64,000 nucleotides of DNA from a virus (lineage: Duplodnaviria > Heunggongvirae > Uroviricota > Caudoviricetes). Of this stretch, positions 95 through 42,064 are shown in pieces. Position numbers and translations under genes: made by a program. Location of the stretch: positions 153,730-217,729 of the IMG/VR virus record IMGVR_UViG_3300012956_000001; one strand, written 5' to 3'. Under the pieces are notes generated by a model. That model was given only the letters and a program-made list of their open reading frames with translations. It was not told the origin of the DNA and made no database searches. Within the stretch, counting starts at the first letter, position 1. Every line of letters begins with the position of its first letter.

Positions 95-865
95 ATGTCT
101 TCTGAAGTCCAATATCCAACTGAAATAGTAGATCTACCGTCCAAAGGATGGTACTATCCAGAGAGTCACCCGTTGGCATCTGGTCAAATTGAAATCTACT
201 ATATGACGGCTAAGCATGAGGACATCCTCACCAGCCGAAATCTAATTCAGCGTGGTGTCGTTATTGATAAGCTCGTTGAAGCGTTGATCGTGAGTAAGGA
301 TATCAAGTATGAAGATTTGCTTGTCGGTGACAAGAATGGTTTGATGGTTGCTGCACGTATCATGGGATACGGTAAGGACTATAATACCACGATTGAATGT
401 CCAGCGTGTGAACAATCTACGTCACATACGATCAATCTTGAAGAGATCGGTAACAAAGAATTGACGTTTAGTGACAAAAACAAGAACAAGAATGAGTTTG
501 AGTTCAAGCTGCCGTTTAGCAAGCGAACCATCACGTTCCAGTTGTTGAGTCACAAGGATGAACGAGCAGTTCAGGCTGACCTTGATGCAGTAAAGAAAAT
601 GGTTAAGAGTGAAATAACAGCCGACGTTACCACTCGTATGAAAAAGTCTATCTTATCAGTTGATGGAGTACGAGACGGTAAGGCAGTTCGTGAGTTTGTT
701 GACTCAATGTTGGCGCGTGACGCGCAGGCGTTTCGAGAATACGCACGAACCGTAAATCCAGATATCGATTTGACATTTGATTTTGAATGTCCGTCGTGTG
801 GACACCGAGCTCGGTTAGAGGTGCCGATTGATGTAAACTTTTTTTGGCCTAACTCCAGCGTATAA
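95..865 (+). CDS. virion-module protein with two CxxC zinc-ribbon motifs (possible baseplate hub/assembly protein)
   Basis: 256-aa ORF with RBS-like AAGGAG upstream; motifs ECPACEQS and ECPSCGH; position immediately upstream of tape-measure gene. Confidence 0.4.
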   Translation: MSSEVQYPTEIVDLPSKGWYYPESHPLASGQIEIYYMTAKHEDILTSRNLIQRGVVIDKLVEALIVSKDIKYEDLLVGDKNGLMVAARIMGYGKDYNTTIECPACEQSTSHTINLEEIGNKELTFSDKNKNKNEFEFKLPFSKRTITFQLLSHKDERAVQADLDAVKKMVKSEITADVTTRMKKSILSVDGVRDGKAVREFVDSMLARDAQAFREYARTVNPDIDLTFDFECPSCGHRARLEVPIDVNFFWPNSSV

Positions 866-4232: not shown

Positions 4233-6454
4233 CATACAAAGGTATGACGGATCGGTTTGAAGAAAAAATGGATCGTCTCTACGGCAAATATTCTGCACGG
4301 GGTATCGATGGCGTAGGACAACCATTTTTAGAAATCAAGCCGAACGACCCGGACAGATCTAAAACAGCACACGACACACGATTGTCGCCGGGCCGATCAG
4401 CATCACTTGATCGATCACGTATTGCTGCATTCCTAAAGTCGCCAGCAGGCGTCAGATTCATGTTGAGTCAGGCAGAGTTACAGACAGGTAATACCTTCTC
4501 TGAAACTCGTCTGTACAATCCACTGTTTCCATTTGGACGATTAGATGCTAATTGGCTTCGTATTACTCGACCATTGGGCACTGCTCGTGGTGTAGGCGTA
4601 GGTGGTAACGGATCTACCAATATACTAGGAAGTGTGGTAAAGGGTTTGCTTACTGGTGATAATACCGTAGACCTTGCTGCACAAAAATCGCCTGGCTCTG
4701 ATGACAAGGTTGGTGGTGCTGGTAGACTTCAACGTGCAACATCACGTACGGTAGTAGATCGTGTAGTTGGTCGTAGTGGACCAACGGGACTATTAAACCT
4801 ACTACCACCAAACAAATTGACGCGTGTGGTCTCTGCCGTTAAGGGTGTACTAGAGACGGGCATATTAGATGTCAACGAACGACCAGAACTTGACATTGAT
4901 GGTCAATATTTTAGTATTGCACTATGGACAGGATTCTCACGAGTTCAGAAAGAACCAAATTCCTTTGTAAAGGCTGGTGCCGCTCTTCGTAAGGGTGATA
5001 TTGGTAGTGCATTGAGCAGCTTTGGCAGCGGTATAGTCAATACTATCAAAAAGAGCGTAGTCGGTACGAAGGGGTCGCCAATTCCAAACAAGGCAATAAC
5101 TGGAAGAAACGATCCCTCACGTACCGACTTAAGTGGTCTTCGATACTTCATTGTTAACAAGAATGATGCAGATCGATACTTACAAAATTCTATGCAAGGT
5201 ACACTTCCATCATTAGAATATTTGCATCGGTTGCCATATAAACTACAGGGCACTTCGCCGTTACTTACAAACACACCAAATACGTCTACAGCAACATCTG
5301 CTGCGGATAAACAAAAGCAAGTACAACGAGACACTGAGAAGAAAAAGAGCTTTCTTAGTAAGGTTGGTGGGTTTGTTAAGAGTGCCGCGACTATATTAAT
5401 TGGTGGTACCGCCAAGGCTGGTACAAACATTAACATCGGACCAACCGACCCAACCACAGGTCGATTGATTTCTGGTGCACAAACATCAAATCCGTTTGCA
5501 CAGAATCCTGCAGAAGAACGAATGTTGTTTGGTGAAATGTCACTAGGCAGCAAATACGAATCTGCCGATGGCGATGTAAAAGTATTTAAAGCCGATCTCG
5601 AAGAACAGACCAAGATATGGCAAGCTGACATTCGACAGCTTGTAACCGATAGAACCTATAATCTTGGATACGTCGGTGGTCTTACACCAGGCGTGAAGAT
5701 TGTTGACGATTTTGGTATCTTTGCATCCAAGAGAACAAAAGTTGACGGTGGCCGATACTTCAGCGACGGCGCTGCTGGATCGCCTGCAATTATGACCAAC
5801 AAAGAAAGTGATGTCGGCGGTAGAACGGTCAATGCAGATCTAAAAACAGAAATTCGTGACACATATAAGGATCTCATAGACTTCATGTTTCACGATTACG
5901 TTAACAATCAAGTCATTCCATTTAGAGCATCACTTACCCAGATTGCAGAATCAGTTACGGCAGATTTTGACGCACAACGATACATCGGACGTACAGAAAA
6001 GAATGTCGTATATGCTGGCGCTGGTAGAGAATTGACGTTTACGTTTTATGTACAAGCATATAGCAAAAAAGAGTTAGACTTTATTTGGAAAAAGATAAAC
6101 TATCTGACGGGTTTGTGTTTTCCAGCATCGTATGCTGATGGATTCATGGTTCCACCATTTGTACAATTGACCATCGGTAACTACTACGTCGATCAGCCAG
6201 GATACATTAAGAGCATCAATCACACAGTAGAAGATAATACATCATGGGACATTGATGTTGATGCACAAGTTCCTATGGGCATGACTATATCGGTAAGCTT
6301 CTCAGTAATAGAGAAGACACAGGTTCGAACAGGCTATAGCTTCTATGGCTATCCAGAACCGCCGCCGCGCACACAAGATAATCAGCCAGGATCACAGACC
6401 GTAGCAATTAATACAGCGGGCGTACCGTCTGCCACCGAACCGAGAACCGCATGA
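4229..6454 (+). CDS. tail/baseplate structural protein
   Basis: 741-aa ORF, ATGA overlap with tape measure stop; Gly/Thr-rich, no enzymatic motif recognised. Confidence 0.45.
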   Translation: MTYKGMTDRFEEKMDRLYGKYSARGIDGVGQPFLEIKPNDPDRSKTAHDTRLSPGRSASLDRSRIAAFLKSPAGVRFMLSQAELQTGNTFSETRLYNPLFPFGRLDANWLRITRPLGTARGVGVGGNGSTNILGSVVKGLLTGDNTVDLAAQKSPGSDDKVGGAGRLQRATSRTVVDRVVGRSGPTGLLNLLPPNKLTRVVSAVKGVLETGILDVNERPELDIDGQYFSIALWTGFSRVQKEPNSFVKAGAALRKGDIGSALSSFGSGIVNTIKKSVVGTKGSPIPNKAITGRNDPSRTDLSGLRYFIVNKNDADRYLQNSMQGTLPSLEYLHRLPYKLQGTSPLLTNTPNTSTATSAADKQKQVQRDTEKKKSFLSKVGGFVKSAATILIGGTAKAGTNINIGPTDPTTGRLISGAQTSNPFAQNPAEERMLFGEMSLGSKYESADGDVKVFKADLEEQTKIWQADIRQLVTDRTYNLGYVGGLTPGVKIVDDFGIFASKRTKVDGGRYFSDGAAGSPAIMTNKESDVGGRTVNADLKTEIRDTYKDLIDFMFHDYVNNQVIPFRASLTQIAESVTADFDAQRYIGRTEKNVVYAGAGRELTFTFYVQAYSKKELDFIWKKINYLTGLCFPASYADGFMVPPFVQLTIGNYYVDQPGYIKSINHTVEDNTSWDIDVDAQVPMGMTISVSFSVIEKTQVRTGYSFYGYPEPPPRTQDNQPGSQTVAINTAGVPSATEPRTA

Positions 6455-6732: not shown

Positions 6733-9700
6733 ATGTCAGACAAAGAAGAAGATCGTAGACCCTTTCCACAACTAAATTCATTCCGCCCTTGGACTAGTGC
6801 TGAATTAAAGAAGCGCCGAACAACATGGCCGACGCCAATTACCGCGCCATTTGTTCGTATGACTTCGTGCAATGAAGATACGTTCATTGGATACAAATAT
6901 TTCACACTTGGTTTGCACGGATTTGACGCGTCTAACGATACCAATCTCTTTGACCTGACATATGGTGCAAATAGAGACATTGTAGGGTATGCATATAAAG
7001 ATGGAAAGAAGACGCTCATCGATTCTACACAGATCAAGTATGTTACGCCCGACTTTAAAGACTTCAATAATTTGGCAGAAGACCACCCAAAGCGAAAGGC
7101 AGCGAACCAGCGAGTCCAACAGTCACAAGCATTGCAAGATCAAACAACTGCACTTGGCGCACACCCGATACCGGGTATTACGGCTGTTCAAGTCAAGCGA
7201 AGTGGTCTTGCCGCGCCGCTTATTGCCGAGGTTCGTTGGCAGTGTTACAACCAACAACAACTTGAATTTCTACGAAATCACTTTTTGGTGGTTGGTAGCT
7301 ATATTGTGCTGGAATGGGGTCACAAGTATCATGATAATGATAAGCGACCAAGTACAATCCTAGACTTTAACAGTGAAACCATTGAAGATACACTGACCGA
7401 AATTGTTGTTCGTGGACGAAAAGAAGTCATTGAAAAATTCTCACAACAAAATTCTGGAAATTACGACATTATAGTAGGTCAGGTTGGTAACTTTACCGTC
7501 GATATAGATCCAGCAACCAACATCTACAAGTGTAGCACGAGAATTGTATCTATTGGTGAAAACGTATGGGGCTTGAGTACTCAACAAACTGTTACTGTCA
7601 TTGAAAGCGGCAAAGACCCCAACAACGTTAACAGAATAAGTGACATACACAGTTATTTTGCACAAGGCGCTGGCTTTGATCAATTGTTGGGTAAGCTCGA
7701 AGCAACTTCTGCTGGTGCAAAATATGTTCGGCCACAACAAAAGGCATATGGCGAATCGGCACCCACGACAAATGAAACCGCTGAAGTAGGAGCAAATCCC
7801 AAGGATACTGCTTTCATTAGTTGGAAGGGATTTACCACCGATGTAGTTAATGACATCATAAAAATGTTTGATAACGTCAGTACGGATTCTACTACACAGG
7901 AGATGTACAACAAGCTAAAAACAGAACTTCGTGTATTGTTGACGCTCGGCGACGAACCAGACATCAATCTGTCACGACCAGAACTATACGATGAACAAAG
8001 AAAAATATATGACCGGGAGTGGATAGGCAATCATCCAGAATTGCGATCTATTGATCCCAATCTGTTAATCTTGATTACTCCCAAGGTTGCCGCCAATTCG
8101 CCTGCAACGGAATGGTTGGGCAATGGGTTGTTCGGTGAGGGTGCCCCAGATGAAAAACGTGCCAAGCTAAACAAGGGGTTGTGGATTAGCGCCGGATTGA
8201 TTCGTGATTCATTCTTACGAACCACCACCCTCCAAGCAGCAATACAACAGATCTTAAACGGCATGAATATTGCAGTTGGCGGCTATTGGCAGTTGCAATT
8301 GTTCTATGACGATGAAATTTCTGTGTATAAAATTATTGACTATAAGTTTGATGATACCGAAACGACACTCAAGACGCCGTTCTATGTATTTAACTCAAAT
8401 CAAAACGAACATCATAACGAAGTACTAGACATACAGTTCGATTCGGCGTTTCCGCCTGAGTTAATTACGCAGATGATGGTCGTTTCTATGATTCAAACGT
8501 CCACAGCTGAAGAACAGGCAGCGTATTTTGAAAAGTATCCAATGATCAACAATACTTCGCCATTTATGTTTGCGGTTAATTGGACATCATTGACCGATAT
8601 GTTGAAGAAGCGAATAACTGCACGTCGTAAAGAGTTTAGTGCGCCATTAGGTACTACGACATTAACCGTGTCTAAGGGAAATGAACAAAATGAGACCATC
8701 AATCTATCTCAGGGTAATCGAACGGGTGATATAGGCAACATTGGGCCACAGACGGGTAATACACCAACTGATTCTGCATCAGAAGGAACACCCAGAACGG
8801 TTATTGGATCATTGCCTAGTACACCAAAGGTTGAAGAGACGCCAACTGCTCCTGCGCCGCGAGGAACCGCCAAGCCGCCTACGAATCCAAATGAATTTGC
8901 ATTGACGCACAATCCACTGGATTCGATGACTATTACATCTGGGTTTGGTGCTCGATCTGCTCCGACGGCGGGCGCATCGAATGATCATCCTGGTCTGGAT
9001 ATTGCCACGCCACAGGGCACGCCGGTCAAAGCCGCCAGATCAGGCGTTGTTATTGACTCTGCATCAAACGTTAGAGGATACGGTGGTATTGTAAAAATCA
9101 TGCATAGTGATGGACACGAAACATGGTATGCACATCTAAGTAATACAACAATAGTAGAAAAAGGAGCATATGTTACTGGGGGTCAAACAATTGCACTATC
9201 TGGTGGTAGACCAGGCACCCCAGGCGCCGGAACATCTACTGGGCCACATTTACACTTTGAAGTACGATATAGGGGTGTTCCAAAGAATCCAAGCGATTCA
9301 TTATCTAAAGTGGGAACGCAACCCGCCAGACCAGATTCGCTGTTTGATAGATCTACAGCAATAATAATACCACCTGCTGCGTCAGATTCAACAAGCGGCT
9401 TTAAGGTATCAGCACCACAACAACCGCCAAGCAAGACCGAAGATCCTGCTGCTGTACAAAAGGCATTGGAGTATCAAAAGAAATTTGGTGATGACATCAT
9501 CAAGCTCATCCATCCAACAGCATCCATCTTACGTAACACCATTACGAAGCATGGATACGAAAATCTATCGGATACTATGATTAACGCATTTGTCTCGCCG
9601 TTTCCAACAACAACTTCGGTAGATGTACGTGTACAAGGTATAACTGGTATTAGCATTTCGGATGGATTCATGGTTGACAAATTGCCATTTATATTTGCTA

Positions 9701-9828
9701 GTTATGGTGTATTCCAAGTTACTGAATTGACTGATAGTATTACCGATAAGGGCTGGTATACTAACATTCGAGGATACTTCAAGATGATATGGCCCACCGG
9801 CACCGGCGGCTTGCGAGATGATCTATGA
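6733..9828 (+). CDS. baseplate hub / tail-associated protein with C-proximal M23 (lysostaphin-like) peptidase domain
   Basis: 1031 aa; HPGLDIATPQG (HxxxD) ... HLHFEV (HxH) M23 metallopeptidase signature. Confidence 0.75.
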   Translation: MSDKEEDRRPFPQLNSFRPWTSAELKKRRTTWPTPITAPFVRMTSCNEDTFIGYKYFTLGLHGFDASNDTNLFDLTYGANRDIVGYAYKDGKKTLIDSTQIKYVTPDFKDFNNLAEDHPKRKAANQRVQQSQALQDQTTALGAHPIPGITAVQVKRSGLAAPLIAEVRWQCYNQQQLEFLRNHFLVVGSYIVLEWGHKYHDNDKRPSTILDFNSETIEDTLTEIVVRGRKEVIEKFSQQNSGNYDIIVGQVGNFTVDIDPATNIYKCSTRIVSIGENVWGLSTQQTVTVIESGKDPNNVNRISDIHSYFAQGAGFDQLLGKLEATSAGAKYVRPQQKAYGESAPTTNETAEVGANPKDTAFISWKGFTTDVVNDIIKMFDNVSTDSTTQEMYNKLKTELRVLLTLGDEPDINLSRPELYDEQRKIYDREWIGNHPELRSIDPNLLILITPKVAANSPATEWLGNGLFGEGAPDEKRAKLNKGLWISAGLIRDSFLRTTTLQAAIQQILNGMNIAVGGYWQLQLFYDDEISVYKIIDYKFDDTETTLKTPFYVFNSNQNEHHNEVLDIQFDSAFPPELITQMMVVSMIQTSTAEEQAAYFEKYPMINNTSPFMFAVNWTSLTDMLKKRITARRKEFSAPLGTTTLTVSKGNEQNETINLSQGNRTGDIGNIGPQTGNTPTDSASEGTPRTVIGSLPSTPKVEETPTAPAPRGTAKPPTNPNEFALTHNPLDSMTITSGFGARSAPTAGASNDHPGLDIATPQGTPVKAARSGVVIDSASNVRGYGGIVKIMHSDGHETWYAHLSNTTIVEKGAYVTGGQTIALSGGRPGTPGAGTSTGPHLHFEVRYRGVPKNPSDSLSKVGTQPARPDSLFDRSTAIIIPPAASDSTSGFKVSAPQQPPSKTEDPAAVQKALEYQKKFGDDIIKLIHPTASILRNTITKHGYENLSDTMINAFVSPFPTTTSVDVRVQGITGISISDGFMVDKLPFIFASYGVFQVTELTDSITDKGWYTNIRGYFKMIWPTGTGGLRDDL

Positions 9829-10244
9829 GTTTTTCTAATGACCCCATTGGCGACTACCTTCGCGTCACAAAGATAAAAAACGCAATCCGACCGCCGGATA
9901 TGATTCCATATACGCCTATCATCTCAGAACGAGATCGTCGTAATGGTGAAATTGTCAGATATTTTGGCCGATTCATTACTCATACTGATCCATCGGACAT
10001 TGTAGAAGTATCTAAGACAACATACAACTTGTTAACACAGAATGCTCTCTATCAAACAGTAAAAATTAGATGGAAAGTTTCTGGTCGATTGGAAGACGAG
10101 TATGGGTTGCCTAACGGTAACACACAGATTAGATTGTATACTGGACCTCTCACAGCAAACAGACTAAGTGTAGAATTTGCCGACGAGTTATTACCAGGCA
10201 TTGCAAGCTACATTACCGACTACACGAGATTTTGGGAACCATAA
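9825..10244 (+). CDS. hypothetical baseplate-module protein
   Basis: 139-aa ORF with ATGA overlap to hub gene. Confidence 0.35.
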   Translation: MSFSNDPIGDYLRVTKIKNAIRPPDMIPYTPIISERDRRNGEIVRYFGRFITHTDPSDIVEVSKTTYNLLTQNALYQTVKIRWKVSGRLEDEYGLPNGNTQIRLYTGPLTANRLSVEFADELLPGIASYITDYTRFWEP

Positions 10245-10247
10245 TAC

Positions 10248-11606
10248 ATGCAATTGTTAGAAACGGTTACAGATGTAGAAACGGTTATGGAAAGGCTACA
10301 AAAACAGGATATTTTGATTGTTCCGATCCTAACCGATACAAAAACGCACCCGGCTGTAAATCCCGTGTGCGTTTTGTGCATTTCTACGTCTACGGAGTCG
10401 TTTTTAATCGGTTTGGACCACAATGAGATGGAAGTGCTCGATAAGTCCGTTTTATTGCGCCTGGCGTCAAGCCAGAGGGTCTGGGCAGCTGATAAAAAGG
10501 CTCTTTTCCATAGCTTTCCCGACCTGGCGACCGACGATGTGGCCTCGTTGGAGTATCTTGTCTCTGGTGAGGTCACAAAGGCGGAGACGTTCTATACCAT
10601 CACGCATAGGCACATGATGAATGTCTATGATACTGCGGTCAAAGTCAATAAAAGCATACCAATCATGCAGCATATCGCATTTTTGGAGGGCTATGTCGCA
10701 CATTTGTGGTCCGTAATTAATAATCATGTATCAATATGTGACACCACCGCATACAAGTGGTTGAATGAACAAGCAATACCCGCGTTGTCGTTTATTGAAT
10801 CGAATGGAATTCATGTTGACAGGCAACTTGCCGTACAACGATATCCAGATAAACGGCTGGGGAGACATTTAGCAACGGGATTGTTGTATTCGGAATATAA
10901 TCTATTCACCAAAACAGGTCGATGTTCCAATAAATTTGCTGGAATCAACTATGCTGCACTAAACAAACGTGACGGCACTCGTAAAATGTTCACGAGTAGA
11001 TACGAAACCGGCATGATGGTAATGGTTGACTTTGAAAGTTTCCACTTACGATTGATTGCTGACATGATTGGTTATGAATTTCCAACCAACATACCAGTAC
11101 ACCAATATCTGGGTCAGCAATACTTCGACAAACCAAATTTGACACCAGAAGAATATGACGAAGGCAAGAAAATTACGTTTCGATTGCTCTATGGCGAAGA
11201 TCGAGATGATAACATACCAGAATTCTTCAAAGCAGTCTATCAATACATTGATATGTTAATGGTGTTGCTCAACAAAAATGGCTATATTCTATCGCCATAC
11301 AACAAGCGACATATTGAACGAGACAAGATTGAAGACCCCACACCATCTAAGGTGTTCAATTACATGGTTCAGCTAGCAGAAACTGAAGTGAACCTGACGA
11401 GCATCAATAAAATGAAGACATTGTTTGAAAACACAAACTCTAAGCCTATGTTGTACACATATGATAGTATTTTGTTTGATTATGATGTACATGATGGAAA
11501 GAAACTTCTGATGGATGCTATTGCTATACTATCACACGACAACAAATTTCCGATGCGTGTGTATTACGGAAAAACGTATGACGAATTAACGGAGGTATCG
11601 GTATGA
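10248..11606 (+). CDS. highly diverged minimal family-A (Pol I-like) DNA polymerase-like protein
   Basis: 452 aa; VDFESFHLRLIADMIG resembles PolA motif A (DYSQIELR), GKKITFRLLYGE resembles motif B (K...F..YG), YTYDSILFDYDVHD resembles motif C. Confidence 0.5.
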   Translation: MQLLETVTDVETVMERLQKQDILIVPILTDTKTHPAVNPVCVLCISTSTESFLIGLDHNEMEVLDKSVLLRLASSQRVWAADKKALFHSFPDLATDDVASLEYLVSGEVTKAETFYTITHRHMMNVYDTAVKVNKSIPIMQHIAFLEGYVAHLWSVINNHVSICDTTAYKWLNEQAIPALSFIESNGIHVDRQLAVQRYPDKRLGRHLATGLLYSEYNLFTKTGRCSNKFAGINYAALNKRDGTRKMFTSRYETGMMVMVDFESFHLRLIADMIGYEFPTNIPVHQYLGQQYFDKPNLTPEEYDEGKKITFRLLYGEDRDDNIPEFFKAVYQYIDMLMVLLNKNGYILSPYNKRHIERDKIEDPTPSKVFNYMVQLAETEVNLTSINKMKTLFENTNSKPMLYTYDSILFDYDVHDGKKLLMDAIAILSHDNKFPMRVYYGKTYDELTEVSV

Positions 11607-12442
11607 CGACGATTGGGTTGGTTGGTCGAGGCTTTATAGGCGAAGCATTTTACCAACACATGAAAGAGTTTTACGATGTAAAAGTTTGGGATGTCGATCC
11701 AACAAAATGTAACGTTGAGTCGTTAGAAGAATTGGTTCATCGTGCATCTGTAATATTTGTATCGGTTCCCACGCCAATGAATTTGAAAACGGGTACGTGT
11801 GATACAAGTATTGTTGAAGATGTAGTCTCCAAGATTAACTTCATTGCCACCACCGACAAAATTGTAGTCATTAGATCGACGGTGCCGCCTGGCACGTGCA
11901 AGAGTTTGGACAAATCACCGAATGGCGTATCGATTGTGTTCAATCCAGAATTTTTAACAGAAGCAAATCATATTAGAGACTTTGAAGAACAAGATAGAAT
12001 TGTTCTTGGTGGTCAGCCTTTACAAAGTAAGGTGGTGGCAGATATTTATGCTACTGCGTTTCCGCTAGCGTTCATTGTGTTACTGGATTGGACATCCGCT
12101 GAAATGGTCAAATACACTGCCAATACGTTCTTAGCAACTAAAGTAACGTTTGCCAATGAAATAAAGCAAATATGTGACAAATTGAACATTTCGTATGATG
12201 GCATGATTAATGTGGTGAGTATGGATCGCCGCATTGGAGCATCCCATTGGTCTGTGCCCGGCCCTGATGGTCATTTAGGCTTTGGTGGAACGTGTTTTCC
12301 AAAGGATATTAACGCGTTGATTGCCCATGCAAAAAAATTGAAGGTCAAAGTCCCACTATTAGAAGCGGTTTGGAAGAAGAACCTACAATTGCGGCCAGAG
12401 CGTGATTGGGAGCAATCTAAGGGACGTGCCGTAACGCCTTGA
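11603..12442 (+). CDS. UDP-glucose/GDP-mannose 6-dehydrogenase family protein, C-terminally truncated (no UDP-binding domain)
   Basis: N-terminal GLVGRGFIG Rossmann motif; GFGGTCFPKDINAL matches catalytic-Cys motif GFGG[ST]CFPKD; only 279 aa; ATGA overlap with upstream gene. Confidence 0.6.
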   Translation: MTTIGLVGRGFIGEAFYQHMKEFYDVKVWDVDPTKCNVESLEELVHRASVIFVSVPTPMNLKTGTCDTSIVEDVVSKINFIATTDKIVVIRSTVPPGTCKSLDKSPNGVSIVFNPEFLTEANHIRDFEEQDRIVLGGQPLQSKVVADIYATAFPLAFIVLLDWTSAEMVKYTANTFLATKVTFANEIKQICDKLNISYDGMINVVSMDRRIGASHWSVPGPDGHLGFGGTCFPKDINALIAHAKKLKVKVPLLEAVWKKNLQLRPERDWEQSKGRAVTP

Positions 12443-12500
12443 GAGTATTGAGTTTACTACTTATGATGTAGTTCTGTTACATCATATTGGAGTTTGTTAC

Positions 12501-12914
12501 ATGAGCATAAATACTCAGTTACTTTGCACGTTTTGTACGGTTGAAACGCTGGAAGACACCCTCTCTAACATTGTTGCTAGTTACGACGTTGTATTCGATA
12601 CCATTTACGTACTTGAAAACGTAGATAGTCCTGAATCTCTCTGTTGTACGTATAATGTAGACACCGCCGTACCCCATCGCGGTGAAGTACCACCGGCCAC
12701 AATTTCCCTTCATCGTAAAAAGGCAACAAACACGTTATACACTATTAATGCACTTAACTTATTAATTGCTGATCTAAATAATGGTAACGTAGATAAAGGC
12801 TTTAAGGTGCCATGGGAAGATTATCGAAATACGATTTTGGTCACAGCATATAACAAGCTTAAAAAGATTACTACCAAGTTAAACGAGATTGTTAAAGTTC
12901 AAGATATCGCTTGA
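12501..12914 (+). CDS. hypothetical protein
   Basis: 137-aa ORF preceded by GGAG RBS. Confidence 0.4.
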   Translation: MSINTQLLCTFCTVETLEDTLSNIVASYDVVFDTIYVLENVDSPESLCCTYNVDTAVPHRGEVPPATISLHRKKATNTLYTINALNLLIADLNNGNVDKGFKVPWEDYRNTILVTAYNKLKKITTKLNEIVKVQDIA

Positions 12915-12938: not shown

Positions 12939-12962
12939 TATGACCATGCCCGCACAGTAAAA
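12939..12962 (+). terminator. hairpin (cccgcacag-taaaat-ctgtgcggg) flanked by AGTAGTTT/AAACTACT inverted repeat
   Basis: 9-bp perfect stem seen directly; no clear U-tract. Confidence 0.35.
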
Positions 12963-13066
12963 TCTGTGCGGGAACATCGTCGAGAAACTACTTATAAGCA
13001 ATGGTTACGTTTTTAGATTCAAAACGATTTATCATTTACTAATTAAAAATCATTAGGAGTAATTTT

Positions 13067-15324: not shown

Positions 15325-16362
15325 ATGAATCTCGCAGAAAAGCTTAAACAATTTTCTGCATCTAATGAAGTAGTTGAGCCCATTGGTCGAGACAGCAAGG
15401 TGCTGTTGGTTGATGGGCTCAATTCGTACCTTAGATGCTTTGTTGCCACACCAACGATGAACGATGATGGTATGCATATTGGTGGGATGAGTGGATTCTT
15501 GCGTTCTGTTGGACTTGCCATCCGCCAATTCAAACCAACGCGATGTGTCATTGTGTTTGATGGCAAAGGTGGTAGTCAACGTAGACGAGAGATATTCAAA
15601 GACTACAAGGGCAACCGAAAGTCGATGACTAAACTAAATCGTACGTATGATTTCCAAACGATTGATGAGGAAGTAACCTCACAGAAACATCAGCTCAGAT
15701 TGTTAATCAATGCCATGCAACATTTGCCAGTTACGATTGTTGCCCCGGACAATGTGGAGGCCGATGACGTGCTTGCTTACTATGCCAACTTGATTGCTGA
15801 TCGTGGTGGTAATGCTATCATTATGTCTACCGATAAAGACTTCCTACAGCTTATCAATAAAAACATCAAGGTATGGAATCCAGTAAAGAAAAAGATGTAT
15901 GACGTTGATGCTGTATTAGAAGAATATGGCATTCATCCAAACAACTTTATCATCCTACGAACCATTGTTGGTGATGACAGCGACAATATTCCAGGCGTCA
16001 AGGGCATTGGACCAGCAACACTAAAGAAACATTTTCCCGAATTGGCAAATGAAACAATGGTGCCATGGGATCACATCTTTGCATCGGCAGAAAACAATAC
16101 CAGTAAAGCTGCTCAATTGCTATTGAATAGTAAGACGTTGCTTGAAATGAATACAACACTCATGCGATTAGATGAACAACAAATGAGTGGTAATACAAAA
16201 GCAAAAATTCTTGATCAGTTCGATGCTCCAATTGGATTACTTAACAAGTTGGGCTTGACACAGATGTTCGTTCATGATAGATTGATGAGTGCATTTCCTA
16301 ACCTAGATGATTGGTTGTTAAATACATTCGGTCCACTCACTCGTTTCAGCCACAAGGATTAA
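15325..16362 (+). CDS. rnh: RNase H / 5'-3' flap endonuclease (T4 rnh-like, FEN family)
   Basis: LLVDGLNSYLR, EADDVLAYYAN, IIMSTDKDFLQL correspond to the FEN/RNase H acidic-cluster motifs. Confidence 0.85.
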   Translation: MNLAEKLKQFSASNEVVEPIGRDSKVLLVDGLNSYLRCFVATPTMNDDGMHIGGMSGFLRSVGLAIRQFKPTRCVIVFDGKGGSQRRREIFKDYKGNRKSMTKLNRTYDFQTIDEEVTSQKHQLRLLINAMQHLPVTIVAPDNVEADDVLAYYANLIADRGGNAIIMSTDKDFLQLINKNIKVWNPVKKKMYDVDAVLEEYGIHPNNFIILRTIVGDDSDNIPGVKGIGPATLKKHFPELANETMVPWDHIFASAENNTSKAAQLLLNSKTLLEMNTTLMRLDEQQMSGNTKAKILDQFDAPIGLLNKLGLTQMFVHDRLMSAFPNLDDWLLNTFGPLTRFSHKD

Positions 16363-21916: not shown

Positions 21917-22228
21917 ATGACCGAACTCACCCCGTCTGAATTTGACACACTAGTAACCACCAATGACATGTTTGTAATAAAGTTTTGGGCGGGGTGGTGC
22001 GAGTCTTGTATGGAAGCAGATCCTATTATTGAATCCGTCGCATCTACAACAGAAATACCATTTTATTCTGTGAATGTAGATTTGTATCCAGAAATTAAAC
22101 ATAGTGCACGTATAAAAGCGATCCCGGCTGTTTTATTTTACAAAGAGCGCCGTGTGCGATCATTTTTATTTGGCAATATTACAGAAGATAAAATCAAACA
22201 ACGACTATTGATGTTGGAGAGAATGTAA
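21917..22228 (+). CDS. thioredoxin-like protein
   Basis: FWAGWCESCM contains WCxxC active-site motif; start taken at ATG 21917 one nt after vWA stop. Confidence 0.7.
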   Translation: MTELTPSEFDTLVTTNDMFVIKFWAGWCESCMEADPIIESVASTTEIPFYSVNVDLYPEIKHSARIKAIPAVLFYKERRVRSFLFGNITEDKIKQRLLMLERM

Positions 22229-23660: not shown

Positions 23661-26225
23661 ATGTATAACAATATATTTATAACAAATAGAACTGCCGATC
23701 AAGACTCTATTGTATATGTGTGGGGTGACGGCCAACATAATGATTCAGGATTGCACACATACAATTGGTCAGATTTTAACTATTCTTATAAGCTTGATCG
23801 TAATGGTGATAAGCAAACCATTTACGGTGATCGTGTAAGTCGTACAACACGATGGACCGAGGGTGCAAGCAATATATTCGAGAGCGATGTACCGCGTGAA
23901 ACCCGCGTACTCACCGACCTATATCTTGACAGCGACGAAGTAGCCAAGAATCATCGACTGCTTGTATTCGACTTGGAAGTGGAACGTGTTGCTGGTGCAT
24001 TTGCCTCGGTCGAAAAGGCTGATGGTAGAATCACCGCAATTGGTTGTTATGCCGACGTTCGTGATGAGTACGTGGTGTTTCTGCTCGATGATAAACAAAG
24101 ATTCTCCCCAAGAAAACAAACCGTAAAGAACGAAACCATTATTGCATTTGACTCTGAGAGTGAAATGCTTGAAGCGTTTCTATCCTATTATAGTGACTAT
24201 GCACCAACGTTGCTAACTGGATGGAACATCTATGCATATGACGTACCATATCTGTATCGTAGATTGATGGTGTTGTTTGACAAAGAAACGGCCAACTCAC
24301 TCAGTCCGATTGGAATGGTCAAATACTCCAAGCGCCGCGGGCAGTATCAAATTGCTGGTGTAAGTTGTTTGGACTATCTTGAAATGTATCAGAAGTTTAC
24401 ATTCTCACGCCGTCCGAGTTATCGCTTGCATGACATTGGATTGTATGAAGTAGAGATGGGTAAGATCGAATACGATGGCAGTCTAGATGACTTCTACAAA
24501 AACGACCTACCAGGCTTTATTGAGTACAACCTTCAAGACGTGCGTATCGTTGTTGAAATTGACAAGAAGATGAAGCTTGTGGATCTGGTCAAGAATATCA
24601 GTCACGTTGGCCATACACAATACGAAGATTATCGTTACAGTTCAAAGTACATTGAAGGTACGATTCTAACTTATCTACATCGTCAGGGTCGTGTCGTACC
24701 CAACAAGCGTGCTGAAGGACGTGCTGAATTTGAAGAAAAGCTTGAACTAGACGAGGAAGGATTCAAGGGTGCGTATGTAAAGGAACCAGAGACGGGCTTG
24801 TATAATTGGGTGTATAACCTAGACTTACAATCACTGTATCCGTCAATCATTATGTCATTGAACATTAGTCCAGAGACAAAGATTGGATACGTCAAGAATT
24901 GGAACCTTGACCAGCATTTAAAGAAAACTGCAACACATTACATTGTTGAGATTGGATCGGCAGAAAATCTACTGACCAGAGATCAGTTTATTCAATTCAT
25001 GAAAGACGAAAAGTTCATGGTATCGTCCAATGGTGTATTGTATCGATCCGACAAGCTCGGCGTCATTCCAGAAATTCTAGATGTGTGGTTCAATCAGCGA
25101 CTAGAATTTAAGAGCCTACAGAAGAAATACAAGAAAGAGGGTAATGTCGATCTTGCTGGGTACTATGATCGTCGTCAGCACGTGCAGAAGATTTTGCTGA
25201 ATTCGATTTATGGTGTTCTTGGATTGCCTATCTTTAGATTCTACGATCTGGACAATGCATTGGCTGTTACTGCGACCGGACAAGATGTTATCAAGATGAC
25301 CGCAAAATTCATCAATCAAAAATACATCAAACACACCGGGGACACCGATAAGACAGATTGGTGTATTTACATCGACACTGACTCTGTATATTTCAGTGCA
25401 GAACCATTTTTTGATGGCACCGAGAAAACCGACGAAGATCGTATTAAGAAAACGATTGAAGTTGCTGCGGATGCGGAAGAATCAGTAAACAAGTTCTATG
25501 ATGTGATGTCACGCGTTTCATTCTTCTGTATGAATCATCGATTTGTCATTAAACCAGAATATGTTTCACGTAGAGCAATGTGGGTGGCCAAGAAGCGATA
25601 TGCATTATGGACCGTACACGATTTAGACAATAATGTGCCGGTTACATCTACAGAACCATCCGTCAAGGGATTAGACATTCGTCGATCAAGTTTCCCACCA
25701 GCGTTCAAGGATTTGATGAACAATTGCTTGACCGGCATTCTTAATGACGCACCAAAGGAAGAATTGGATGTCATTATCTTGAAGTTTAGATCGGATATGA
25801 ACTCTATGTCATTTAAGACTATCGCACGAAATACATCAGTGAAGAATGTTTCAGAGTTCGATGTCAAGGGTGCAGTAGGATACCAAAAGTTTCCTAAGAA
25901 GGCCGCTGCTCACGTAAAGGCATCGGTATCATACAATCGTTGGCTCCGAGCACACAAGATGGATAAATCGCATGGTGTGATTCGTGACGGTGATAAGATC
26001 AAGTGGTGTTACTTGAAGAAAAACGAATTTGGTATTAAGACAATGGCGCTTAAAGGATATGATGATCCCGAGGAACTACAAGAACTCGTATACAACAATA
26101 TTGACCACCAGACCCTATTCGACAACGAATTAAAGAATAAACTGGATGATTTTTACTCTGCTATGGGGTGGGGATTGGTGCCAACCTCAGTCAATCAGTC
26201 GGCCGCGACCTTCTTTGACTTCTAG
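23661..26225 (+). CDS. gp43: family-B DNA polymerase (T4 gp43-like)
   Basis: 854 aa; exo motif LVFDLEVE, motif A DLQSLYPSII, motif C YIDTDSVYF, KKRY motif. Confidence 0.9.
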   Translation: MYNNIFITNRTADQDSIVYVWGDGQHNDSGLHTYNWSDFNYSYKLDRNGDKQTIYGDRVSRTTRWTEGASNIFESDVPRETRVLTDLYLDSDEVAKNHRLLVFDLEVERVAGAFASVEKADGRITAIGCYADVRDEYVVFLLDDKQRFSPRKQTVKNETIIAFDSESEMLEAFLSYYSDYAPTLLTGWNIYAYDVPYLYRRLMVLFDKETANSLSPIGMVKYSKRRGQYQIAGVSCLDYLEMYQKFTFSRRPSYRLHDIGLYEVEMGKIEYDGSLDDFYKNDLPGFIEYNLQDVRIVVEIDKKMKLVDLVKNISHVGHTQYEDYRYSSKYIEGTILTYLHRQGRVVPNKRAEGRAEFEEKLELDEEGFKGAYVKEPETGLYNWVYNLDLQSLYPSIIMSLNISPETKIGYVKNWNLDQHLKKTATHYIVEIGSAENLLTRDQFIQFMKDEKFMVSSNGVLYRSDKLGVIPEILDVWFNQRLEFKSLQKKYKKEGNVDLAGYYDRRQHVQKILLNSIYGVLGLPIFRFYDLDNALAVTATGQDVIKMTAKFINQKYIKHTGDTDKTDWCIYIDTDSVYFSAEPFFDGTEKTDEDRIKKTIEVAADAEESVNKFYDVMSRVSFFCMNHRFVIKPEYVSRRAMWVAKKRYALWTVHDLDNNVPVTSTEPSVKGLDIRRSSFPPAFKDLMNNCLTGILNDAPKEELDVIILKFRSDMNSMSFKTIARNTSVKNVSEFDVKGAVGYQKFPKKAAAHVKASVSYNRWLRAHKMDKSHGVIRDGDKIKWCYLKKNEFGIKTMALKGYDDPEELQELVYNNIDHQTLFDNELKNKLDDFYSAMGWGLVPTSVNQSAATFFDF

Positions 26226-26312: not shown

Positions 26313-26759
26313 ATGAAGCTATACATTCCGCGCATTGGCGAAATTATTGAACTGTCTGCCCCGTGGCAGTTCGACTTGTTTTATGAAAATCGCAATGAGA
26401 GCGTATGGATGAAACTTAATCTTCCACTTGCTATGCCTCAACCAGGCGGATTTAACTATTTTGGGGCAAGCACAGCATTTGATCCCACCGATATTACCGT
26501 ACATAATCTTACAATGATTCCTCGTGAGAAATTTCCACCCACATCATGGAACAGATATATTGTATCTGCACCAGTGGAGTTTCCGACCGGGACAAAACTT
26601 AGTATCGAAAAAATTCAAATTCGTAGAGGTATGCGCCAATTTGATTCTATTACATTTCGAGTTCAACCCGGCACCACACCCGGATTTGAAAAAGGCAAGC
26701 CTAAATTCTGGGCCAAACTAGATCAAGTAAATACTATGGAGTGTGTTGACCGTGTATAA
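26313..26759 (+). CDS. hypothetical protein
   Basis: 148-aa ORF, GAGGA RBS; 3' end overlaps ligase start. Confidence 0.4.
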   Translation: MKLYIPRIGEIIELSAPWQFDLFYENRNESVWMKLNLPLAMPQPGGFNYFGASTAFDPTDITVHNLTMIPREKFPPTSWNRYIVSAPVEFPTGTKLSIEKIQIRRGMRQFDSITFRVQPGTTPGFEKGKPKFWAKLDQVNTMECVDRV

Positions 26760-28648: not shown

Positions 28649-29584
28649 ATGAGCAACGATACCCCTACAACGGATGTGGGCGTTATTATCGGTAGATTTC
28701 AAGTTCATCAGTTGCATGAAGCTCACATTGAGCTGATTGAGACGGTGAACAAGAAGCACGATAGGACGCTCATTTTTATTGGCCTGAGCCCACTCCGCAA
28801 CACCACCAGAAATCCTATGGACTTCAACACGCGTCGAAAGATGATTCTTGAATCATTTCCGCAGGTTGAAGTTTATTATATCGAAGATCATCGTAGTGAC
28901 GAAGTTTGGTCTGCCAACTTGGACCGAGAAATTACTAAGTGGTTGAAGCCCCACCAAACCGTCACACTCTATGGTAGTCGGGATAGTTTTATTTCGTCTT
29001 ATCATGGACGATACCAGACTGTTGAATTGCAGTCGAGCAAGATTATCTCTGGATCAGAAATCCGGCGGCGTATTTCGAATTCCTTTGAAAAGGATAAGTC
29101 GTATCGTGCCGGTGTGATTGCCGCGACATTTGATCGATATCCTACCAGTTACACGACCGTTGACATCGCAATCATAAACGAAAAGAATGAAGTTTTGCTG
29201 GGCAAGAAGCCCGGTGAGTTTGCTCTTCGATTCATCGGCGGATTCGCCAGCCCTGATTCCGACACATTCGAACAGGATGCTCGTCGTGAAGCAATGGAAG
29301 AAACTGGACTGAGCATTGATACTCTACGATATGTTGGATCGGCCAAGATCGATGACTGGCGGTACCGTGGTGAGATAGACAAAATCAAAACACTGTTCTT
29401 TGTAGGAAATTACATGTACGGTGCTCCCGAAGCAGGAGATGACATCGAATACGTGGAATGGGTAGATATGACGAGTCTGTTTTCTGGTAAGATTCACATT
29501 GTACCCGAACACATTCCGCTCGTTGTTATGCTCGGTGAATATGTGGGACAAAAGGCTTCGATTTTCAACAACAAAACCTCTTAG
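28649..29584 (+). CDS. bifunctional nicotinamide-nucleotide adenylyltransferase / Nudix hydrolase (NadM-Nudix type)
   Basis: N-terminal GVIIGRFQVHQLHEAH (cytidylyltransferase-fold HxGH-type motif), C-terminal Nudix box REAMEETGL. Confidence 0.7.
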   Translation: MSNDTPTTDVGVIIGRFQVHQLHEAHIELIETVNKKHDRTLIFIGLSPLRNTTRNPMDFNTRRKMILESFPQVEVYYIEDHRSDEVWSANLDREITKWLKPHQTVTLYGSRDSFISSYHGRYQTVELQSSKIISGSEIRRRISNSFEKDKSYRAGVIAATFDRYPTSYTTVDIAIINEKNEVLLGKKPGEFALRFIGGFASPDSDTFEQDARREAMEETGLSIDTLRYVGSAKIDDWRYRGEIDKIKTLFFVGNYMYGAPEAGDDIEYVEWVDMTSLFSGKIHIVPEHIPLVVMLGEYVGQKASIFNNKTS

Positions 29585-29910: not shown

Positions 29911-29914
29911 CACT

Positions 29915-42058: not shown

Positions 42059-42064
42059 GGATAT

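Follow-up and report, generated by a model that had tools for sequence, protein, structure and literature searches.

The closest described relatives of the polymerase analyzed here form the divPolA1 group, which was first described in 2024 by computation from 14 phages, with gp001 of Flavobacterium phage vB_FspM_immuto as exemplar (Yutin et al. 2024, Virol J 21:200, PMC11348598). A second diverged PolA, divPolA2 of barbaviruses, has no normal thumb and stands beside a regular PolB; it carries an unrelated N-terminal globular domain, occurs in a variable genomic context and has a structure like that of RNA polymerases (PMC11348598). A literature search yielded no biochemical evidence on record for any divPolA1. 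Pol nu and Pol theta of eukaryotes are family-A polymerases with an inactive exonuclease, which serve in repair and not in bulk replication. In phage T7, thioredoxin reportedly binds the DNA polymerase through a 76-residue insertion at the tip of the thumb (Doublie et al. 1998).

Here we show how a phage locus compares with these systems. The analyzed DNA (the window) is a stretch of 64,000 nucleotides, in which a sequence-only reading had pointed to a minimal, diverged family-A polymerase gene next to a gene resembling UDP-glucose dehydrogenase (UDPGDH). Coordinates of the features are collected in Table 1.

Fold and family membership

The ORF at 10248-11606, further called mini-PolA, does encode a family-A polymerase, and a highly diverged one. 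The AlphaFold (AF2) model (pLDDT 92.6, pTM 0.91) can be superposed on the structures of Klenow, Bst, Pol nu and Pol theta, and has the exonuclease-like domain, palm and fingers of Klenow and Bst (Foldseek E 3e-18, TMq 0.75). PolA DNA polymerases account for all 50 of the 50 best PDB fold matches, so that no RNA polymerase is found among these. When searched against the PDB, a profile of 44 homologs finds the Klenow fragment (E 8e-6); a larger set of 245 homologs, aligned to Klenow with hhalign, reaches a probability of 97.6% (E 2.9e-12) over residues 211-442. Thus motifs A, B and C, recognised earlier in the 452-aa ORF, are present far beyond chance, and the profile and structure analyses suggested at that time both confirm a palm with fingers.

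The single sequence scores 26.9 bits against PF00476, under the Pfam gathering score of 34.3 bits, and therefore the label 'diverged' was right; for NCBIfam PRK05755 the score is 20.2 against 720. Compared with a canonical PolA, the palm/fingers fold and the two metal-binding aspartates are present, but the curated profile thresholds are not reached and the Glu steric gate, the O-helix Arg, the HDE of motif C and the full thumb are all missing.

BLASTP against immuto gp001 yields an alignment at 2e-43 with 28% identity over 402 aa that spans all motifs, and tblastn gives 2e-35. In a megablast search with the locus as query, none of 50,697 phage records matched. The similarity to the exemplar, together with a shared gene order running from the baseplate to SSB, RecA, FEN and helicase, places mini-PolA in divPolA1. 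Both proteins are homologous, measure about 440-450 aa, conserve motifs A, B and C, are extra to a regular DNA polymerase and have SSB, RecA, 5'-3' exonuclease and DnaB helicase downstream in the same order. They differ in that identity is only 28%, the regular polymerase here is a PolB and the source contig measures approximately 200-218 kb. The regular polymerase of immuto has 777 aa. Overall, mini-PolA matches the published description point by point (PMC11348598): similarity to the exemplar, motifs A, B and C, a lost thumb, a replaced exonuclease site, presence in addition to PolB, and synteny. We propose to annotate the ORF as 'divergent family A DNA polymerase (divPolA1)'.

The window further encodes a regular T4-type PolB, a clamp (32051-32809) and a clamp loader (34185-35102 and 36338-36784), all as listed in the sequence-only reading. 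Its central claim, that a second and minimal diverged family-A polymerase exists alongside a PolB replicase, is hereby borne out by the fold on the one hand and the PF00136 gene on the other. Judging from its residues, mini-PolA is apparently catalytically competent and sits beside a complete T4-type PolB replisome.

Table 1. Features of the mini-PolA locus and of related genes in the window. Residue equivalents refer to Klenow.
Feature	Coordinates	Strand	Basis or residues
orf139, closing ORF of the baseplate/tail genes, ending 3 bp before divPolA1	9825..10244	+	ORF call
divPolA1-type mini family-A polymerase gene	10248..11606	+	ATG, 452 aa; AF2, Foldseek, BLASTP
3'-5' exonuclease-like domain, residues 1-165, active site apparently lost	10248..10742	+	hhalign vs Klenow exonuclease domain
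Thumb remnant, residues 191-220, non-conserved linker	10818..10907	+	245-member alignment, PDB profile alignment
Motif 2 region TKTGRCSNKFAGINYAALNKRDGTR	10908..10982	+	R225 = R668; N239/K240 = R682/N683; R245 = R690
Motif A MVMVDFESFHLRLI	11016..11057	+	catalytic D261 = D705; H266 = E710, steric-gate position
Motif B / O-helix YDEGKKITFRLLYG	11154..11195	+	Y303 = R754, K307 = K758, F311 = F762, Y315 = Y766
Motif 6 KVFNYMVQLAETE	11349..11387	+	N371 = N845, Q375 = Q849, family-specific invariant E378
Motif C LYTYDSILFD	11451..11480	+	Y405 = H881, catalytic D406 = D882, S407 = E883
GGAGG Shine-Dalgarno (11591-11595, 7 nt before ATG) and ATGA stop/start overlap (11603-11606)	11591..11606	+	
Short two-domain nucleotide-sugar dehydrogenase homolog, 279 aa, putative accessory cargo	11603..12442	+	ATG; Pfam, TIGR03026, AF2
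orf137, basic 137-aa protein, conserved companion of divPolA1	12501..12914	+	co-occurrence, synteny
Thioredoxin (WCESC), not linked to mini-PolA	21917..22228	+	PF00085 6.7e-16
Regular T4-type PolB, 854 aa, with exonuclease domain	23661..26225	+	PF00136 1e-43, PF03104 1.1e-20

Conserved and replaced active-site residues

Residue counts were obtained from 245 family members (28-95% identity), with the register taken from hhalign against Klenow. The equivalents of D705, D882, R668, K758, F762, Y766, N845 and Q849 are kept. In the motif 2 region R225 is found in 245/245 members, K240 in 235/245 and R245 in 244/245. Motif A reads DFESFHLRL, with D261 in 245/245 and H266 in 244/245, and motif B follows the pattern YxxxKxxxFxxxYG (K307 in 245/245, F311 in 236/245, Y315 in 244/245). 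Q375 and E378 of motif 6 are invariant (245/245) and N371 is seen in 234/245; the corresponding Asn/Gln pair N845/Q849 is involved in minor-groove sensing. Motif C has Y405 and D406 in 245/245. The catalytic residues of the motifs are conserved across the 245 relatives, and the substitution of the motif C aspartate that had been considered does not occur.

Against this background several positions deviate from Klenow: E710 is replaced by His, R754 by Tyr, H881 by Tyr and E883 by Ser. At position 303, the equivalent of R754, the family has Tyr in 211 members, Ile in 17, Leu in 5 and Arg in only 5 (n = 245). To our knowledge all characterised PolA enzymes, and T7 RNA polymerase too, have the Arg of R754 at this position. 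Position 407, the equivalent of E883, is Ser in 211, Ala in 31 and Gly in 3 members, and acidic in none (n = 245). A His for the steric-gate Glu, a Tyr for R754 and a Ser for E883 together imply a rewired nucleotide pocket, and consequently kinetics or a substrate preference that would differ from Pol I.

Loss of the thumb and of the exonuclease site

The alignments indicate that the thumb of mini-PolA is deleted down to approximately 30 residues. Spacing between IExxG and TGR ranges from 15 to 37 residues (median 31, n = 245) against 121 in Klenow, and the PDB profile alignment skips from residue 235 to 326 of the Klenow construct at this point; the thumb is thus about 90 residues shorter than that of Klenow.

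The 3'-5' exonuclease site likewise appears to be destroyed. The N-terminal domain aligns to the Klenow exonuclease domain with an hhalign probability of 75%, so its register is moderately secure. In this register D355 of ExoI corresponds to P26 (Pro in 215/245) and E357 to L28 (hydrophobic family-wide). The position of D424 of ExoII holds D82 here, yet is Asp in only 112/245 members (46%), and D501 of ExoIII aligns to a gap. The catalytic residues are thus lost as in Bst and Taq. A new metal site composed of H34, H58 and D97 was considered and rejected: H58 and D97 align with H387 and D441 of Klenow and are therefore ancestral structural residues. The Klenow alignment provides no explanation for H34. 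Different from Pol I, no 5'-nuclease is fused to mini-PolA; FEN is encoded by a separate gene approximately 3.7 kb downstream.

The same domain distinguishes mini-PolA from other thumbless or single-subunit enzymes. Whereas divPolA2 has its own N-terminal domain and no constant neighbourhood, mini-PolA retains the PolA exonuclease-like domain and a fixed context. The alignment of this domain with that of PolA also separates the protein from single-subunit (T7-like) RNA polymerases. Such a polymerase, which lacks thumb and proofreading yet keeps a conserved active site and has a rewired pocket, is attractive for enzymological study and perhaps also for engineering.

A thioredoxin gene had been brought forward as a possible partner by analogy with the PolA of T7. 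The gene is indeed encoded in the window, and both systems thus combine a family-A polymerase with a thioredoxin that is encoded or available. The analogy itself fails because there is no thumb for docking: where the T7 thumb carries its 76-residue insertion, the whole subdomain is absent and only some 30 non-conserved residues are left. The thioredoxin gene is located between a vWA gene and a dUTPase, about 2 kb after a class II RNR.

Distribution and gene neighbourhood

The divPolA1 family comprises 737 cluster representatives at E<=1e-30 and is present in at least 594 IMG/VR contigs. It is therefore far larger than the 14 published phages, with hundreds to thousands of metagenomic members, and is almost confined to surface-water metagenomes. 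A search of cellular genomes produced only 11 matches, all on short MAG contigs with inconsistent taxonomy, which are probably mis-binned phage DNA. Rather than a curiosity of 14 phages, divPolA1 belongs to the backbone of a very large freshwater and marine clade of T4-like phages, including phages with a full replisome of PolB, clamp and clamp loader.

As noted in the sequence-only reading, mini-PolA lies at the boundary between the baseplate and replication modules. Upstream lie baseplate and tail genes that end with orf139; they include T4_baseplate (95-865) and an M23-peptidase protein of 1031 aa (6733-9828). A homolog of orf139 was detected in only 16 of the 51 loci with enough upstream sequence. 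On the 3' side the order is gp32, UvsX, FEN and gp41, with FEN at 15325-16362; a ligase is encoded further on, at 26743-27861. Downstream of divPolA1 in IMG/VR loci, gp32, UvsX and FEN are each found in 32/34 and gp41 in 30/34, and synteny around the gene is kept from 95% down to 27% identity. Within one phage clade this is weak functional evidence, because the whole backbone is conserved. In this clade the regular polymerase can be of family A, B or C, and divPolA1 stays throughout.

Sequence comparison points to orf137, not the UDPGDH-like gene, as the real conserved companion of divPolA1. This gene is located downstream of divPolA1 in 66/67 IMG/VR loci, and among the 50,697 phage records both genes occur in exactly the same 6. 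Its product has the invariant motif HRKK-x2-N-x2-Y-x2-N-x2-N. Searches of Pfam, PHROGs and PDB sequences gave no match for orf137, for orf139 or for a cargo protein of approximately 400 aa that is discussed below. The His at E710, the Tyr for R754 and the Ser/Ala for E883 are new with respect to the published description; neither the His steric gate, the R754-to-Tyr and E883-to-Ser replacements nor the orf137 companion is discussed by Yutin et al. 2024 (PMC11348598).

Possible roles of mini-PolA

We consider it probable, with moderate confidence, that mini-PolA is a divPolA1 member built from a dead exonuclease-like domain, palm and fingers, which serves as an extra, non-bulk polymerase and as a backbone gene of aquatic T4-like myoviruses, the UDPGDH-like gene being cargo. 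The gene always stands beside a regular replicase in this large clade. The putative activity is that of a distributive, non-proofreading, DNA-templated DNA polymerase, which probably performs short-patch synthesis beside the replisome instead of bulk replication. Candidate jobs are the filling of gaps after primer removal by FEN/RNase H, as a 'split Pol I' with separately encoded FEN, and the extension of recombination intermediates made by UvsX, either alone or in addition. Several points weigh against this explanation. A thumbless polymerase may hold its primer-template poorly on its own. R754 and the steric-gate Glu are replaced and the second motif C carboxylate is absent, which all argue against a mere miniature of Pol I. 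The gene could also be transcribed together with late structural genes instead of with the replication genes, as set out below, and the conserved synteny within one clade says little about function. Its function would show what a complete T4-type replisome still lacks.

Mini-PolA could also be a damage-tolerance polymerase for translesion synthesis or end joining that, like Pol nu and Pol theta, helps UV-exposed aquatic phages to pass lesions or join ends. The polymerase domains of both enzymes are among the top structural matches (E ~1e-17 to 1e-18), and the lost exonuclease site and weaker DNA grip are seen in low-fidelity polymerases too. In addition, the gene adjoins UvsX and gp32, and the family's near-restriction to surface waters fits such a role. 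Nonetheless we regard it as rather unlikely. The equivalents of Y766 and F762 and the minor-groove checks of N845/Q849 are kept in 234-245 of the 245 members, which is typical of accurate PolA enzymes, and all inserts specific to Pol theta and Pol nu are absent. Unlike mini-PolA, both enzymes have a complete thumb, a Glu at the steric gate and R754. The role overlaps with the short-patch synthesis proposed above, and computation cannot separate the two.

A further reading, which seems quite unlikely, sees in divPolA1 no small Pol I but part of a specialised polymerase made of two components. As the other component, the strongly basic orf137 protein (~130 aa) would then replace the DNA grip of the thumb in trans, in a manner likened to thioredoxin or UL42 serving other polymerases. 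The invariant His, the Tyr for R754 and the missing motif C carboxylate suggest an unusual nucleotide preference under this reading; substrates would be ribo-, modified or otherwise non-standard nucleotides, or synthesis would be limited to single-nucleotide or short additions. Given that divPolA1 stays when the regular polymerase changes family, it might even be the polymerase that initiates synthesis in this clade and is indispensable there.

Synthesis of RNA or of a mixed polymer, in a primase-like or transcription-related role, is improbable. The idea draws on the lost Glu gate (His in 244/245), on the Ser, Ala or Gly at E883 and on a motif C resembling that of T7 RNA polymerase (YDS vs HDS). 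PolA has been co-opted for making RNA in T7-like phages, which offers a precedent by analogy. The same possibility was raised for the sister group divPolA2 (Yutin et al. 2024, PMC11348598). On the other hand, a bulky His could still exclude the 2'-OH, the rest of motif A follows D[FY]xx[FY]xLR as in DNA polymerases, RNA polymerases are absent from the top 50 fold matches, and neither a promoter-recognition domain nor a specificity loop is present in the 452 aa. We searched the 64-kb window for a primase and found none. As a general explanation, however, replacement of the primase by mini-PolA was rejected: the exemplar phage immuto has divPolA1 plus a DnaG primase, and priming as a primase substitute is therefore unlikely.

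That mini-PolA is a pseudo-enzyme, i.e. a non-catalytic scaffold of the replisome or of recombination in which the PolA fold is kept only for binding DNA or protein, is decidedly improbable. Such a role would fit the loss of the thumb, of the exonuclease site and of R754 and E883, and the single-sequence Pfam score below threshold, but both metal Asp and the equivalents of K758, Y766, Q849 and R668 are found in 244-245 of 245 members at otherwise ~30% identity, the pattern expected from purifying selection on catalysis.

It is very improbable that the protein is expressed late or packaged with the tail and baseplate proteins and acts at injection or packaging, for example by sealing concatemer gaps, instead of at the fork. 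The 3-bp packing to the baseplate-module ORF and the promoter-like sites 3' of the unit make co-transcription with late structural genes possible. Gaps to the upstream structural ORF are -11 to +5 bp in the window, loci L001, L002, L003 and L005 and Microcystis phage Mel-JY01 (for which a literature search returned nothing), and the best sigma70-like sites are located 3' of the unit, as is a conserved hairpin element. In the marine clade, however, upstream gaps are 36-52 bp. Promoter-like sites number 22 against a shuffled expectation of 18.5, sigma70 and terminator scans are not above shuffled expectation, and a search for the T4 late promoter TATAAATA yielded 3 matches, no more than chance would give and without exception on the minus strand.

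The dehydrogenase-like gene

The 279-aa product encoded directly downstream matches PF03721 (1.1e-24) and PF00984 (2.5e-26), whereas the C-terminal UDP/GDP-binding domain PF03720 gave no Pfam match. It scores 202.5 on TIGR03026 (cutoff 189.8) over profile positions 69-295 of 413, and alignments to solved enzymes end at residue 297-313 of 444-450. Its AF2 model (pLDDT 88.8) is similar to UGDH/GMD in Foldseek (TMq 0.63-0.81, TMt 0.40-0.54). With UDP-glucose 6-dehydrogenase and GDP-mannose dehydrogenase the protein shares the Rossmann-type NAD-binding domain with GxGxxG, the central domain and the motifs NPEFLxE, KxxxN and GGxCFPKD, the last with the catalytic Cys; in place of the whole C-terminal nucleotide-binding domain it has a short tail. 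The catalytic motif GFGGTCFPKD is located at 12278-12307 (C231), and 32 homologs show no variation at G8, G10, G13, C231, K234 and D235. Scores for UDP-glucose 6-dehydrogenase equivalogs remain far below threshold (AglM 128 vs 670, TuaD 128 vs 700, PRK15057 93 vs 757).

This gene had been described as a truncated UDPGDH. The catalytic Cys motif is kept and the C-terminal domain is absent, as was stated, but we reject a decaying copy: homologs of the two-domain form (275-298 aa) number thousands and constitute a large conserved family with the invariant tail motif NLxxRPExDWExxKGRA. We therefore prefer the annotation 'nucleotide-sugar dehydrogenase-like protein, short form' and do not treat it as a functional pair with the polymerase.

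The ATGA overlap between both genes exists as reported, and it is kept wherever the UDPGDH-like gene follows the polymerase, which is only in the clade of at least 64% identity. The gene is absent after the polymerase in relatives at 55%, 34%, 33% and 31% identity and in all of the 67 other IMG/VR loci, while in 44/60 loci a different gene of ~400 aa fills the slot between divPolA1 and orf137. A functional pairing of the two proteins, which might serve to handle sugar-modified or oxidised nucleotides, could appeal to the UDPGDH reaction, in which a primary alcohol is oxidised to the acid, and to the overlap, but is hardly credible given a phyletic pattern that largely refutes it, an ATGA junction that is the commonest in the window (15/68 junctions) next to a ribosome-binding site of the gene's own, and a dehydrogenase family that partners other enzymes elsewhere.

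More plausibly, the UDPGDH-like gene would be an unrelated sugar-nucleotide auxiliary gene that landed in a variable cargo slot; if functional at all, its product may work with the glycosyltransferase and epimerase genes of the phage, which are clustered at 41.5-58 kb in the window. Among the auxiliary genes of pelagimyophages, UDP-glucose 6-dehydrogenase is listed as one of LPS type (PMC7029224). In other genomes the short dehydrogenase comes after a 281-aa epimerase/dehydratase and GT2 glycosyltransferases. One relative is longer (356 aa, locus L005), and its extra length is an intein-like insertion, not a C-terminal domain.

Identity of the polymerase

The sequence-only reading placed both the polymerase and the UDPGDH-like gene exactly, and its account of the surroundings is correct as well: PolB, clamp, clamp loader and thioredoxin are encoded in the window, with baseplate/tail genes upstream of the polymerase and replication genes downstream. 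The latter comprise gp32, UvsX, a 5'-3' exonuclease (FEN/RNase H) and a gp41-type helicase on the 3' side. Coordinates are collected in the table.

Features of the polymerase region and related loci (window positions unless a locus of a relative, L001 to L019, is named)
Feature	Position	Strand	Size	Remark
T4_baseplate	95-865			upstream of polymerase ORF
M23-peptidase protein	6733-9828		1031 aa	baseplate/tail side, upstream of polymerase ORF
divPolA1-type polymerase ORF	10248-11606	+	452 aa	
UDPGDH-like ORF	11603-12442	+	279 aa	
Conserved intergenic element	12453-12500 (hairpin 12462-12486); L001 ~7358-7405; L006 ~4530-4574			directly 5' of orf137
orf137	12501-12914		~130 aa class	basic protein; motif HRKK-xx-N-xx-Y-xx-N-xx-N invariant
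orf137 homologs	L001 7406-7819; L002 7404-7820; L010 1346-1801; L019 13245-13634			
GC-rich hairpin	12949-12972			CCCGCACAG-taaaat-CTGTGCGGG; between orf137 and gp32
Thioredoxin	21917-22228			
T4-type PolB	23661-26225			
ATP-dependent ligase	26743-27861			
Sliding clamp	32051-32809			
Clamp-loader subunits	34185-35102 and 36338-36784			

Several lines of evidence agree on a predicted PolA fold for ORF 10248-11606. In a single-sequence search Pfam DNA_pol_A reaches 26.9 bits over residues 211-317, below the gathering score of 34.3, and PHROGs returns phrog_17 ('DNA polymerase', 1.6e-8). More than 400 homologs are present in a large protein database, nearly all of 430-460 aa and mostly on metagenomic contigs of 100-250 kb. 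With a profile of 44 homologs the best solved relative is the Klenow fragment, and hhalign of 245 homologs against Klenow (a sequence identical to PDB 1dpi, residue numbering checked) aligns residues 211-442 with 97.6% probability (E 2.9e-12). The structure prediction concurs: the AlphaFold2 model, made with an alignment (pLDDT 92.6, pTM 0.91), is superposed by Foldseek on Bst, Klenow, mycobacterial Pol1, Pol nu and Pol theta (E ~1e-18, TMq up to 0.75), the N-terminal domain included. Among predicted viral structures it matches only full-size PolAs of at least 517 aa.

One homolog, gp001 of Flavobacterium phage vB_FspM_immuto, is annotated 'DNA polymerase family A'. Its class, divPolA1, was defined by Yutin et al. 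(2024, 'DNA polymerase swapping in Caudoviricetes bacteriophages', PMC11348598) as the divergent PolA of immuto and 13 related phages, which accompanies a regular PolA, PolB or PolC in the same genome and lies 5' of a conserved replication gene string. Catalytic residues are kept, the thumb is truncated and the exonuclease domain is inactivated (PMC11348598). The window polymerase matches gp001 at 2e-43 across 402 residues and shows every defining feature, and is therefore a new divPolA1 member. The steric gate and Okazaki-fragment processing are not discussed in PMC11348598, and our literature search found no mention of divPolA1 in later papers. The family itself is already published; new and directly testable are its true size, the altered nucleotide pocket and the strict co-occurrence of orf137.

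Active site and domain anatomy

Conservation was counted over 245 family members, with Klenow equivalents given in brackets. The catalytic D261 (D705) and D406 (D882) are each present in 245/245, as are R225 (R668), K307 (K758) and Q375 (Q849), followed by Y315 (Y766) in 244/245, F311 (F762) in 236/245 and N371 (N845) in 234/245. A substituted Asp in motif C had been considered; this Asp is invariant and the residue lost is the adjoining Glu.

In characterised PolA enzymes E710, R754, H881 and E883 are constant. In divPolA1, however, the steric-gate Glu E710 is replaced by His (H266, 244/245), R754 by Tyr (211/245; Arg in only 5), H881 by Tyr (245/245) and E883 by Ser, Ala or Gly, with an acidic residue in none. 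A new invariant carboxylate of motif 6, E378 (245/245; nucleotides 11379-11381), lies three residues past the Q849 equivalent, where Klenow has Ala852, and could be a relocated carboxylate that makes up for the lost E883.

The thumb is essentially deleted: the spacing from IExxG to TGR, 121 residues in Klenow, is 15-37 in the family (median 31), and the residues in between show no conservation. At the N-terminus, residues 1-165 can be aligned with the exonuclease domain of Klenow (hhalign probability 75%), but its active site is gone. D355 corresponds to Pro26 in the window polymerase, E357 is hydrophobic in the family, D501 falls in a gap, and the D424 position holds Asp in just 46% of the family. 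H58 and D97, both conserved, match Klenow H387 and D441 and are therefore structural relics.

T7-style use of thioredoxin needs the thioredoxin-binding loop of the polymerase thumb. A thioredoxin is indeed encoded in the window, but the polymerase is without that subdomain and the proposed T7-like link between the two is not supported. The neighbours of the thioredoxin gene, those for a class II ribonucleotide reductase and dUTPase, point to the usual function as a reductant.

Family size and gene order

The family is far larger than published. An exhaustive profile search gives 2312 cluster representatives at E<=1e-3; 1210 of them also pass E<=1e-10, and 737 pass E<=1e-30. IMG/VR contributes at least 594 stretches with a relative. 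Among 185,579 species genomes of cellular organisms divPolA1 occurs in 11 short MAG contigs only, of incoherent taxonomy, and is therefore phage-restricted; the simplest explanation of these contigs is phage DNA wrongly binned into MAGs. Their assignments include Nitrosopelagicus (an archaeon), Pelagibacter, Nisaea, Omnitrophota and several Bacteroidota.

From 95% down to 27% identity the gene order is rigid: tail/baseplate, divPolA1, a variable slot, orf137, gp32, UvsX, FEN, gp41 and RNR. In 80 IMG/VR loci, counting those with sufficient sequence, gp32, UvsX and FEN are each found 3' of divPolA1 in 32/34, gp41 in 30/34 and orf137 in 66/67.

Possible role

A catalytic centre so strictly conserved speaks for an active nucleotidyl transferase. 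Motif A is of the DNA-polymerase type and the fold matches are to DNA polymerases only, which points to DNA synthesis, and the loss of thumb and proofreading points to distributive, short-patch work. We favour an accessory role for such an enzyme, because the window holds a complete PolB replisome and the neighbourhood of SSB, recombinase, FEN and helicase is fixed. It would fill gaps after primer removal, as a kind of Pol I whose FEN and polymerase parts are encoded apart, or extend recombination intermediates, alone or besides gap filling.

A translesion or end-joining polymerase is a rather unlikely alternative. Synthesis of RNA or mixed polymers is more doubtful, since motif A is of the DNA-polymerase type and RNA polymerases are absent from the top 50 Foldseek matches of the model. 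The strictly conserved catalytic centre also speaks against a non-catalytic scaffold, which we consider quite improbable. Late expression or association with the virion has a slim chance: the final baseplate ORF lies tight against the polymerase ORF, and downstream there are promoter-like sites, which favours it weakly. A primase substitute is unlikely, as immuto also has a DnaG primase.

The dehydrogenase-like gene

The UDPGDH-like ORF gives solid Pfam matches to the N-terminal and central domains of UDP-glucose/GDP-mannose dehydrogenases and none to the C-terminal domain. Described earlier as truncated, the gene is not decayed: homologs sharing 50-70% identity with it number in the thousands and have 275-298 aa, the C-terminal tail (N260, R264-P-E, D268-W, G274-R-A) is invariant, and the fold is confidently predicted (pLDDT 88.8), spanning only the first two of three UGDH domains (TMt 0.40-0.54). 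In NCBIfam it passes the nucleotide-sugar-dehydrogenase subfamily (202.5 vs a cutoff of 189.8) and stays far below the UDP-glucose 6-dehydrogenase equivalog cutoffs.

An ATGA stop/start overlap (11603-11606) joins it to the polymerase ORF. Such overlaps are the commonest junction in the window (15/68), and 7 nt before the dehydrogenase gene lies a GGAGG ribosome-binding site of its own; the 'coupling' thus reflects the usual dense packing of phage genes. The same 4-bp overlap with a dehydrogenase recurs only in relatives at >=64% identity; the gene is missing after divPolA1 in those at 55%, 34%, 33% and 31% and in all IMG/VR loci (0/67), where the slot holds a different ~400-aa gene in 44/60. 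This phyletic pattern contradicts a functional pair of polymerase and dehydrogenase, which is hardly tenable. Overall, the earlier observation stands, the links to dehydrogenase and thioredoxin are not supported, and the interpretation is supported in part.

The gene is best read as an auxiliary sugar-nucleotide gene that entered a hotspot for cargo. Its functional context is likely the glycan cluster at 41477-58182 (GT4, two GT1, a GT7-methyltransferase fusion, a transaldolase-like gene and a gene for a GalE-like epimerase/dehydratase). Elsewhere the short dehydrogenase directly follows a 281-aa NAD-dependent epimerase/dehydratase and adjoins GT2 glycosyltransferases. In pelagimyophages, UDP-glucose 6-dehydrogenase is among the LPS-type auxiliary genes scattered over the genomes (PMC7029224).

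The short dehydrogenase, also seen in loci L013-L018 of relatives, forms a very large family on phage-like contigs, without the nucleotide-binding domain and usually translationally coupled to the epimerase/dehydratase. In another relative (L005, 7353-8423) the ORF has 356 aa owing to an intein-like N-terminal splicing region (TIGR01445, E 5.6e-5, just under cutoff). The insertion starts at about the catalytic Cys and may be an intein or intein remnant in the active site; the next gene (8493-9155) encodes a 220-aa DUF7487 protein. The marine-clade slot protein of ~400 aa (L008, 9378-10637) is conserved, starts MNFDHIVREWFYRLPKGY and has no family match.

orf137 and neighbouring elements

Among 50,697 phage records orf137 is found in exactly the same 6 as divPolA1. 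Invariant residues are N52, H71-R72-K73-K74, N77, Y80, N83, N86, W105 and N110, and Pfam, PHROG and PDB give no match. The protein could be a partner subunit, or simply a clade-specific backbone gene. The element 5' of it contains a 9-bp hairpin (TATGATGTA/TACATCATA), with two compensatory pair changes in L001, and is overlapped by a sigma70-like TTGAGA-17-TATGAT site; it travels with orf137 whether the dehydrogenase gene is present or absent. The hairpin region between orf137 and gp32 folds with z = -3.3, has no T-run after the hairpin, and may have a regulatory or processing function in front of gene 32.

A 390-aa ORF (32810-33982) between the sliding clamp and clamp-loader genes matches DruA, a Druantia defence protein (PF14236, 8.5e-26), a family unexpected in the replication module of a phage. 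Between ligase and clamp lies an NAD salvage pair (28649-31322): a 311-aa protein with a cytidylyltransferase-like N-terminal part (phrog_395/phrog_3041, residues 7-94) and a NUDIX domain, and a nicotinamide phosphoribosyltransferase (NAMPT, phrog_448, 1e-163).
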